Source: a virus (Duplodnaviria > Heunggongvirae > Uroviricota > Caudoviricetes). From it: 39,465 bases of DNA. Shown piece by piece: positions 34,433-34,909 of this stretch. The position numbers were made by a program, and so were the translations under genes. Within the stretch, counting starts at the first letter, position 1. The number at the start of each line of letters is the position of its first letter. The stretch lies in IMG/VR virus record IMGVR_UViG_2526164598_000015; one strand, 5' to 3'. The notes below the pieces were generated by a model that was not told the origin of the DNA, searched no databases, and saw only the letters and a list, made by a program, of their open reading frames with translations.

Positions 34433-34504
34433 TATTATTTACTCATGTTCTAACTGATTTAATATTTATATCGAACACTGATAATTATTCTATTGGTTAG
34501 CTAT

Positions 34505-34843
34505 ATGAACAAAACGATTTTATTCTGCACGATTATTGCCTTAACAGGATGTAAATCTTTGGATTACGTAAAATCCGGAAAACCTGTAATGGAAGGTAAT
34601 TCATTAAAAAATATTGATGAATTGTCAGGCTGCATATCCAGACAATGGGCTGGTAATGGAACACCTATAACATCCCTTCCTATTGAGAATGGGGTAAGCC
34701 TTTTAGTTCCACAGGCTATGGGGGGATATGATGTTGTGCTTGATATCAAAAAAGCAGGAAATGGCAGTAGTTTTACTCTTTATGAACGTGTACCAGCATT
34801 AACGCCAAAAATTTTTGCTGATAGTGTTAATGCATGTAAATAA
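34505..34843 (+). CDS. AT-rich moron lipoprotein (lipobox LTGC) inserted between tail genes I and J; candidate superinfection-exclusion / receptor-masking protein
   Basis: Signal peptide MNKTILFCTIIALTGC; markedly AT-rich versus flanking tail genes; followed by own terminator. Confidence 0.6.
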   Translation: MNKTILFCTIIALTGCKSLDYVKSGKPVMEGNSLKNIDELSGCISRQWAGNGTPITSLPIENGVSLLVPQAMGGYDVVLDIKKAGNGSSFTLYERVPALTPKIFADSVNACK

Positions 34844-34867
34844 TAGTTAATCCTGCCGTAACTCATG

Positions 34868-34895
34868 AGCCGCCTTTTGGGCGGCTTTGTTGTTT
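34868..34895 (+). terminator. Intrinsic terminator after the moron lipoprotein
   Basis: AGCCGCC-TTTTG-GGCGGCT hairpin followed by T-rich tract. Confidence 0.55.
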
Positions 34896-34909
34896 ATGGA
34901 GTGTGAGGA

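Follow-up and report, generated by a model that had tools for sequence, protein, structure and literature searches.

Small disulfide-containing lipoproteins at the periplasmic side of the outer membrane are an established means of superinfection exclusion in siphophages. These exclusion lipoproteins have a mass of ~6 kDa, bind the periplasmic face of the phage receptor, and are encoded beside the gene for the receptor-binding protein and co-vary with it (PMC9586334, PMC12685063, bioRxiv 10.64898/2026.04.02.716166). Llp acts on FhuA (PMC9586334) and Rtp45 on LptDE (PMC12685063), and the two provide a mechanistic template in which the periplasmic binding of an outer-membrane protein remodels its surface loops (PMC9586334, PMC12685063). 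Protein gp15 of phage HK97 has a proven function in superinfection exclusion and blocks DNA entry without touching the receptor (PMC3594210). Here, we describe a lipoprotein gene located between tail genes I and J in a stretch of 39,465 nucleotides of viral DNA (IMG/VR record IMGVR_UViG_2526164598_000015), the whole of which is referred to as the window. The window is a nearly complete lambdoid prophage of Escherichia coli. The lipoprotein gene is a horizontally acquired, mobile accessory gene, a moron, and not a part of the tail.

Genes I and J of the window are separated by a gap of 477 bp, as against 60 bp in phages lambda and PhiR49_1_star. Alignment with insert-free phage DNA places the start of the insert at the base right after the stop codon of I and its end at approximately position 34866 (Table 1). 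The guanine-cytosine (GC) content of the lipoprotein open reading frame (ORF) is 36.3%, with 23.9% GC at third codon positions (GC3). The corresponding values are 57.0% (GC3 56.5%) for I and 57.8% (GC3 69.7%) for J. Only 0.1% of equal-sized segments of the late region are as AT-rich as the insert. The locus shows two of the marks by which morons are recognized: an extra gene between otherwise adjacent genes, and a base composition unlike that of the neighbors (34.1% versus 57-58% GC). An earlier sequence-only reading of the window had described an AT-rich, foreign lipoprotein gene in a lambda-type I-J junction, and the composition (34.1% versus ~57% GC), the LTGC lipobox, and the insert-free alignments bear this description out. 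The ORF starts at TTG 34493 according to a mechanical call or, more likely, at ATG 34505, and its stop codon occupies positions 34841-34843. Because all homologues start at the equivalent of ATG 34505, the product has 112 residues rather than the 113 given previously.

Among complete E. coli genomes (n = 5426), only 337 contain the insert, compared with 4281 that have the I and J flanks (8611 places). Phages lambda, HK97, and HK022, as well as 264 phage records that share this I-J region, lack the gene. The E. coli allele, defined by at least 98% identity, is always positioned between I and J (70 IMG/VR loci). The prophages that surround this allele are mosaic, with tape measure proteins of 24-95% identity and J proteins of 84-100% identity. 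Alleles that are 50-60% identical occupy the K-I junction in Klebsiella and Kluyvera prophages and the junction between the T chaperone and the tape measure gene (T-H) in HK97-like prophages of Enterobacter. A distant but secure member of the family (hhalign probability 99.2%) is encoded by an isolated temperate phage of Serratia, vB_SspS_OS31, with its gene in the K-I slot; this phage was the only match to a distant family member used as a tblastn query against 50,697 phage records. A profile scan of genome contigs with the closer alignment identified one locus only. More distant members are encoded on the opposite strand in a phage replication module, in a small phage-like element, and in a genomic island.

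The T-H, K-I, and I-J junctions correspond to the moron junctions annotated in the GenBank records of HK97 and HK022 (gp15, gp20, gp22/gp23). The morons of these two phages were reportedly treated by Juhala et al. in 2000. HK97 gp22 and gp23 and HK022 gp20, gp22, and gp23 share with the lipoprotein and its relatives the use of the I-J and K-I junctions and a putative terminator before the next tail gene. Kinship with the occupants of these slots was considered and rejected: HK97 gp22 from the I-J slot is unrelated to the lipoprotein, and the 74-residue HK022 gp20 from the K-I slot has an unrelated sequence. In contrast to the lipoprotein, the translations of HK97 gp22 and HK022 gp20 do not begin with a lipoprotein signal peptide or lipobox. 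Since HK97 gp22 is unrelated and HK022 gp20 bears no resemblance to it, the lipoprotein represents new cargo in old slots.

Two further contexts of the gene were observed. In the prophage that carries the Jejubacter-type allele (locus L075, IMG/VR UViG_2836662228_000003, 4100-8900), the K-I slot holds a cargo of ~4.8 kb that consists of several ORFs, the lipoprotein homologue, and a second, unrelated lipoprotein of 149 residues (8406-8855) that has no Pfam match. The several other ORFs of this cargo may encode antirepressor- or helix-turn-helix-type regulators, as judged by reading their translations. An identical copy of the gene is located at positions 71460-71795 of NZ_CP082081.1, the record of a 150-kb E. 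coli plasmid typed as non-mobilizable, which may be a phage-plasmid or an assembly artefact.

The N-terminus of the lipoprotein reads MNKTILFCTIIALTG, followed by CKS, and is a signal peptide ending in the lipobox LTG/C. The lipobox is formed by residues L13, T14, G15, and C16 (34541-34552), with the codon of Cys16 at 34550-34552. The residue at position +2 is Lys and not Asp, which predicts transport to the outer membrane through the Lol pathway, and we infer an outer-membrane localization from this sorting signal. An AlphaFold2 model calculated from a 12-sequence alignment (mean predicted local distance difference test score 83.6, predicted template modelling score 0.75) contains the lipid anchor, a short tether, and a compact α+β domain. 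The predicted order of secondary structure elements is helix 19-24, strand 29-33, helix 37-50, strands 56-60, 63-69, 74-84, and 87-94, and helix 103-111. In the model, Cys43 is in the long helix and Cys111 is at the end of the C-terminal helix. The positions of these two invariant cysteines suggest a disulfide staple, and Cys43 and Cys111 probably form a disulfide bond. We are highly confident in the overall anatomy of the element: a mobile moron of the I-J slot whose product is lipidated at Cys16, should reside in the outer membrane, would expose a ~10-kDa disulfide-containing domain to the periplasm, and does not belong to the virion.

The protein is identical to WP_001332187.1, which is annotated as a hypothetical protein in strain DA33133. 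The sequence-only reading had found no family that it could name. This has to be amended: the protein is a full-length member of PHROG 914 (hidden Markov model (HMM) match with E 7.3e-33, residues 1-112 on profile positions 1-118 of 118), a catalogued family that carries the label 'unknown function'. Matches from Pfam, NCBIfam, PADLOC, and the PDB are lacking. No Pfam family matched the protein at E up to 1 or any of 52 relatives, and no NCBIfam or PDB sequence matched the single protein or the 12- and 52-member profiles. Hits to VirB7, FlgP, and Llp in the family and PDB searches were rejected as signal-peptide noise. Ten relatives, with identities down to ~22%, also match phrog_914 only. All the named members are annotated as 'hypothetical protein' or 'lipoprotein', and literature searches (accession, PHROG number, lipoprotein morons of tail modules) retrieved no paper dealing with the family.

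A word-indexed search identified ~20 relatives of 50-62% identity, which come from E. coli, Jejubacter, Kluyvera, Klebsiella, and Enterobacter. When 1.8 billion representatives were searched exhaustively with an HMM, 125 clusters were obtained at E up to 1e-3, nearly all of them 105-125 residues long. The lipobox is present in 129 of 132 family members, none of which (0/129) has Asp at position +2. Exactly three cysteines occur in 121 of the 129, the last one being the penultimate residue in 108, and the median mature length is 98 residues. The lipidated cysteine, C43, and C111 are invariant in all 52 aligned members, and P27, K35, W48, and G63 are nearly so. Pairwise ratios of nonsynonymous to synonymous substitutions (dN/dS) calculated by the Nei-Gojobori method are 0.06-0.28, with synonymous sites saturated. 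The ORF is a real gene under purifying selection. As a separate observation, some copies are frameshifted or truncated (IMG/VR loci L072, L073, and L074; proteins P0002 and P0018); the gene decays in a minority of prophages.

The sequence-only reading had assigned the insert its own terminator. However, the GC-rich hairpin that follows the gene belongs to the I-J backbone. It has a 9-bp GC-rich stem and a T-rich tail (-16.7 kcal/mol, z -3.4), and a homologous hairpin occupies the same distance from J in insert-free lambda (locus L094, 1463-1490) and PhiR49_1_star. The arms read AGCCGCC and GGCGGCT in the window and AACCGCC and GGCGGTT in the two phages, so that changes in both arms keep the pairing. 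The presence of the same hairpin in insert-free phages indicates that the insert ends at the foot of a pre-existing structure. The hairpin may be a functional attenuator of the late operon upstream of J, or a landing pad for moron exchange or a remnant of it. Strong hairpins, with U7 tails, likewise follow the gene in the K-I and T-H slots. The gap in insert-free HK022 at T-H is 20 bp, too short for such a hairpin, and the T-H terminator therefore probably travels with the gene.

The terminators after the Enterobacter allele (L006 6362-6384, T-H) and the OS31 allele (L095 6350-6372, K-I) share an identical 22-nt core, ACCCGCTCCGGCGGGTTTTTTT. The window protein is 51% identical to the Enterobacter allele and 20% identical to the Serratia OS31 allele with this core. 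The shared core may mark the conserved end of a cassette, or it may be a terminator motif that is common in general.

The position of the lipoprotein gene differs from that of the genes for described exclusion lipoproteins. The gene adjoins the part of J that encodes the N-terminus, at a distance of 3.4 kb from the receptor-binding end, and is placed upstream of I or H in its relatives. The C-terminal 230 residues of J, compared among 36 E. coli carriers in which J is intact, group into four classes with 8-73% mutual identity, whereas the lipoprotein is at least 98% identical throughout. Conversely, the C-terminal type of the window J (97.6% nucleotide identity) is found in the VT1-Sakai and PPompW prophages and in other phages without a homologue of the lipoprotein. 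The window J type is not covered by a receptor-prediction preprint. The lipoprotein is uncoupled from the receptor-binding end of J and from the type of tape measure.

Cor proteins of phi80, N15, HK022, and T1-like phages (PHROG 1119) resemble the window protein in being products of lambdoid tail-region morons with a signal peptide, a lipobox, and outer-membrane sorting, and in having one intramolecular disulfide, which is probable in the window protein, with the last cysteine next to the C-terminus. However, Cor has a mature length of ~60 residues, is encoded downstream of J or the receptor-binding locus, and is tied to the use of FhuA, whereas the mature lipoprotein described here has 97 residues and is encoded upstream of J; it has no match to PHROG 1119. 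Llp and Rtp45 are also small outer-membrane lipoproteins with a disulfide, but their genes adjoin that of the receptor-binding protein, they are receptor-specific, and neither is among the top structural matches. HK97 gp15 is encoded in the same T-to-tape-measure slot as the Enterobacter homologues. It is, however, a 62-residue, YebO-like inner-membrane protein, the first described moron, and not a lipoprotein; a Pfam scan of the window protein at E up to 1 gave no YebO-type match that would indicate homology to gp15. Lambda Bor/Iss (PF06291) is, like the window protein, a prophage-encoded outer-membrane lipoprotein of ~10 kDa, but its gene sits beside the lysis genes, and the window protein lacks a Pfam match to it. 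The lipoprotein is not a member of the Cor, Llp, or Bor family.

The nearest solved structure is that of the Francisella lipoprotein Flpp3 (DUF3568), a weak match (Foldseek E 6e-3, template modelling (TM) score 0.52, 6-9% identity). Flpp3 and the N-terminal domain of BamC are only 6-10% identical in sequence to the window protein, which has no Pfam match to DUF3568, and the similarity is that of a generic fold, which KA1, DUF302, and Bet v 1-like domains also have. A comparison with viral models gave a single significant match, an uncharacterised 93-residue protein of Pseudomonas phage phiAH14a (E 1.8e-5, TM 0.70/0.83).

We tentatively propose that the protein is an envelope-conversion lipoprotein that provides receptor-independent superinfection exclusion. 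This function is suggested by the known phage-encoded outer-membrane lipoproteins, which are mostly entry blockers, and by the presence of gp15 in the T-H slot of HK97. According to the proposal, the precursor would be exported, lipidated at Cys16, and delivered to the outer membrane by the Lol pathway. Anchored in the inner leaflet of the outer membrane, the ~10-kDa α+β domain would hang in the periplasm, stabilized by its disulfide. A weak promoter in the AT-rich leader, if active, would allow production of the protein in the lysogen; in any case, the protein would be made late in the lytic cycle, when Q-antiterminated transcription reads through the tail operon. The envelope of the lysogen would be altered, and incoming phages would fail at an outer-membrane or periplasmic step. 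The protein may bind an envelope component used by other phages or hinder siphophage tail tips in crossing the periplasm; in the second case, it would be an outer-membrane counterpart of HK97 gp15. These two targets are expected because the lipoprotein is not paired with the receptor-binding protein of its own phage. We consider it unlikely that PHROG 914 as a whole is an unrecognized, widespread class of receptor-independent entry blockers that are anchored in the inner leaflet of the outer membrane and, in the periplasm, intercept the tail tip or tape-measure conduit of incoming lambda-like siphophages or jam a shared envelope factor. Such a class would explain the hopping of the gene among moron slots across Enterobacterales without tracking the receptor-binding domain.

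Several results weigh against receptor-independent exclusion. The lipoprotein has neither an experimental nor a homology link to any exclusion protein, and because it is uncoupled from J, the genomic signature by which exclusion lipoproteins are usually recognized is missing. A tblastn search of the 50,697 phage records with the window protein gave no match at E up to 1e-5, none of the isolated E. coli phages among them carries a close homologue, and no defence model of PADLOC-DB v2 matched at E up to 1. A relationship to Cor was considered because hhalign gave a probability of 93% with HK022 Cor, but over the signal peptide and 12 residues only; family profiles of the mature domains reduce the probability to 2.4%, which identifies the signal peptide as the source of the match. 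A likeness to Cor noticed by eye (MGG[YH] and C-terminal CK motifs) was dropped with this result, and Llp (PDB 8a60_B) matches the signal peptide only. In a standard scan with spacers of 16-18 nt, no sigma-70 site on the + strand upstream of the gene reaches 9/12; neither the Enterobacter T-H nor the Klebsiella K-I context contains a promoter candidate, and the gap between K and the gene in Klebsiella is only 32 bp.

The top match of a relaxed promoter scan in the window, TTAATA-15-GATAAT (9/12), has a non-standard spacing of 15 nt, and the best candidates at standard spacing reach 8/12, for example TTTACT-16-TAATAT; both results are at the chance level for AT-rich DNA. Because no slot offers a convincing upstream promoter, autonomous expression from the prophage remains putative. 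At the least, the biology of lambda predicts late expression from transcripts that read through the antiterminated tail operon.

The sequence-only reading had named, as frequent roles of such morons, the masking of an outer-membrane receptor of the Cor/Llp type and serum resistance. In the classical form of masking, the lipoprotein would attach to the outer-membrane protein recognized by its own phage's J, on the periplasmic face, and alter the surface loops; lysogens, and progeny among cell debris, would thus be shielded from phages of the same type. The lipobox, the outer-membrane sorting signal, and the single probable disulfide are as in Cor, Llp, and Rtp45 (PMC9586334, PMC12685063), the gene is in the tail module on the same strand as J, and late expression by read-through would suit an Llp-like lytic conversion. 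However, the results obtained here do not support the idea: mature-domain homology is absent, the mass is ~10 kDa versus ~6 kDa, and the gene lies away from the receptor-binding end. A near-identical protein accompanies four unlike J C-termini, and the window type of J occurs without the gene. As membership in the Cor, Llp, and Bor families and the signature of own-receptor masking are both absent, we have lowered our estimate that the lipoprotein is a Cor and regard own-receptor masking as quite improbable. A block of phage entry by a route other than that of Cor is still compatible with these results.

As the main alternative, the lipoprotein could act on the fitness or virulence of the host, as a conversion factor similar to Bor/Iss or Lom that confers resistance to serum and complement, envelope robustness, or resistance to colicins or antimicrobials, and has no anti-phage role. 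An identical protein occurs in the extra-intestinal and outbreak pathogens UTI89, NU14, APEC O1:K1:H7, O104:H4 outbreak strains, and O55:H7 CB9615 (the UTI89 and O104:H4 copies being annotated as 'hypothetical protein'), but the carriers also include commensal, water, and animal isolates, and every examined context is a phage or mobile element, environmental metagenomes included, rather than specifically a host-adapted pathogen. Independence from the receptor-binding domain of the phage and the position 3.6 kb upstream of lom, which encodes a known lysogen-expressed outer-membrane protein, agree with a role in host fitness; so does the virulence association of Flpp3, although the structural similarity is weak, and there is no Pfam match to Bor or any other family. 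We consider this function possible but doubtful. Small periplasmic lipoproteins with disulfides are common among immunity proteins and lysozyme inhibitors. The lipoprotein gene directly adjoins K, the product of which combines JAB and NlpC/P60 domains (Pfam), in the Klebsiella, Kluyvera, and Serratia relatives. The lipoprotein might be a periplasmic immunity or inhibitor protein that neutralizes an incoming toxin or enzyme: an effector of a type VI secretion system, a colicin, a lysozyme, or a tail-associated peptidoglycan hydrolase of a phage, for instance the NlpC/P60 domain of gpK. We judge such a role about as improbable as own-receptor masking: MliC/PliC, Ivy, Tsi/Tai, and colicin immunity families are missing from the Pfam, NCBIfam, and PDB matches and from the top structural matches, and no toxin gene is linked in any examined context. 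A function in tail assembly or as a conserved structural part of the tail tip, which the sequence-only reading had named as the finding that would count against it, is effectively refuted. In Enterobacterales, the gene is always inside the tail module and co-oriented with the tail-tip genes, but its product carries a lipobox and a signal for export, and tail assembly is cytoplasmic. The gene is missing from most relatives, including lambda, HK97, and HK022, varies in position among three junctions, and has a foreign base composition. The remaining probability falls to some other function.

A lipoprotein moron in a lambdoid tail operon is a textbook element, and its family has already been catalogued as being of unknown function. 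The modest novelty lies in an uncharacterised but clearly functional family whose members are unlike the known exclusion lipoproteins in size and predicted fold and show no coupling to the receptor-binding protein. Envelope-protein morons of prophages shape the phage susceptibility and virulence of their hosts, and most of them are uncharacterised. PHROG 914 is spread across Enterobacterales prophages and metagenomes, and an identical protein is present in heavily studied pathogens. Given the different size, the predicted fold, and the uncoupling from the receptor-binding protein, an exclusion phenotype would imply a new mechanism, whereas a serum or envelope phenotype would define a new lysogenic-conversion factor. 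With neither phenotype, the gene would be one more ordinary hypothetical moron.

The window has an integrase at its left end and also encodes a CI-like repressor, Q, terminase, and the head proteins; then come tail genes H, M, L, K, I, and J, and lom. Gene I of the window is 91-100% identical to I of related prophages. The Pfam matches of J are PF24801, PF13550, PF24421, and PF09327, and that of Lom is PF06316. The features of the I-J region are listed in Table 1.

Table 1. Positions of features around the lipoprotein gene in the window
Feature	Position	Strand	Evidence and remarks
Tail assembly gene I	33791..34432	+	PF06805 Lambda_tail_I, E 4e-24; left flank of the insert
AT-rich insert, ~434 bp, 34.1% GC	34433..34866	+	Alignment with insert-free PhiR49_1_star and lambda; composition
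AT-rich leader, 72 bp, weak Shine-Dalgarno sequence	34433..34504	+	Promoter scans
Lipoprotein gene, 112-residue precursor, PHROG 914	34505..34843	+	ORF; phrog_914 E 7e-33, full length; dN/dS
Signal peptide, residues 1-15	34505..34549	+	Read from the sequence; residue +2 is Lys
Mature domain, 97 residues, 10.3 kDa	34550..34840	+	Cys43 (34631-34633), Cys111 (34835-34837)
GC-rich hairpin with interrupted T-run, putative terminator common to insert-free lambdoid phages	34867..34896	+	
Tail tip/host specificity gene J, right flank	34910..38389	+	Pfam J domains; comparison with 45 related J genes

Compared with all 45 related J genes, J of the window contains two compensating frameshifts, an inserted T at 37689 and a deleted C near 38017. 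As a result, 109 codons are read in a shifted frame, which contains a stop codon at 37711. Either the prophage is tail-defective or the frameshifts are assembly errors.

A second AT-rich island (9600-12000, GC 0.32-0.40) is located directly downstream of the antiterminator gene Q (9753-10109). The slot downstream of Q is the position of the stx genes in Stx phages. The island contains two ORFs on the minus strand, at 10610-11524 and 10115-10594. Its products are a DUF6731 protein of 303 residues (E 9e-12) and a 158-residue protein with a weak RexB-like match (E 1.5e-3), and the island may represent a RexAB-like abortive-infection cassette.

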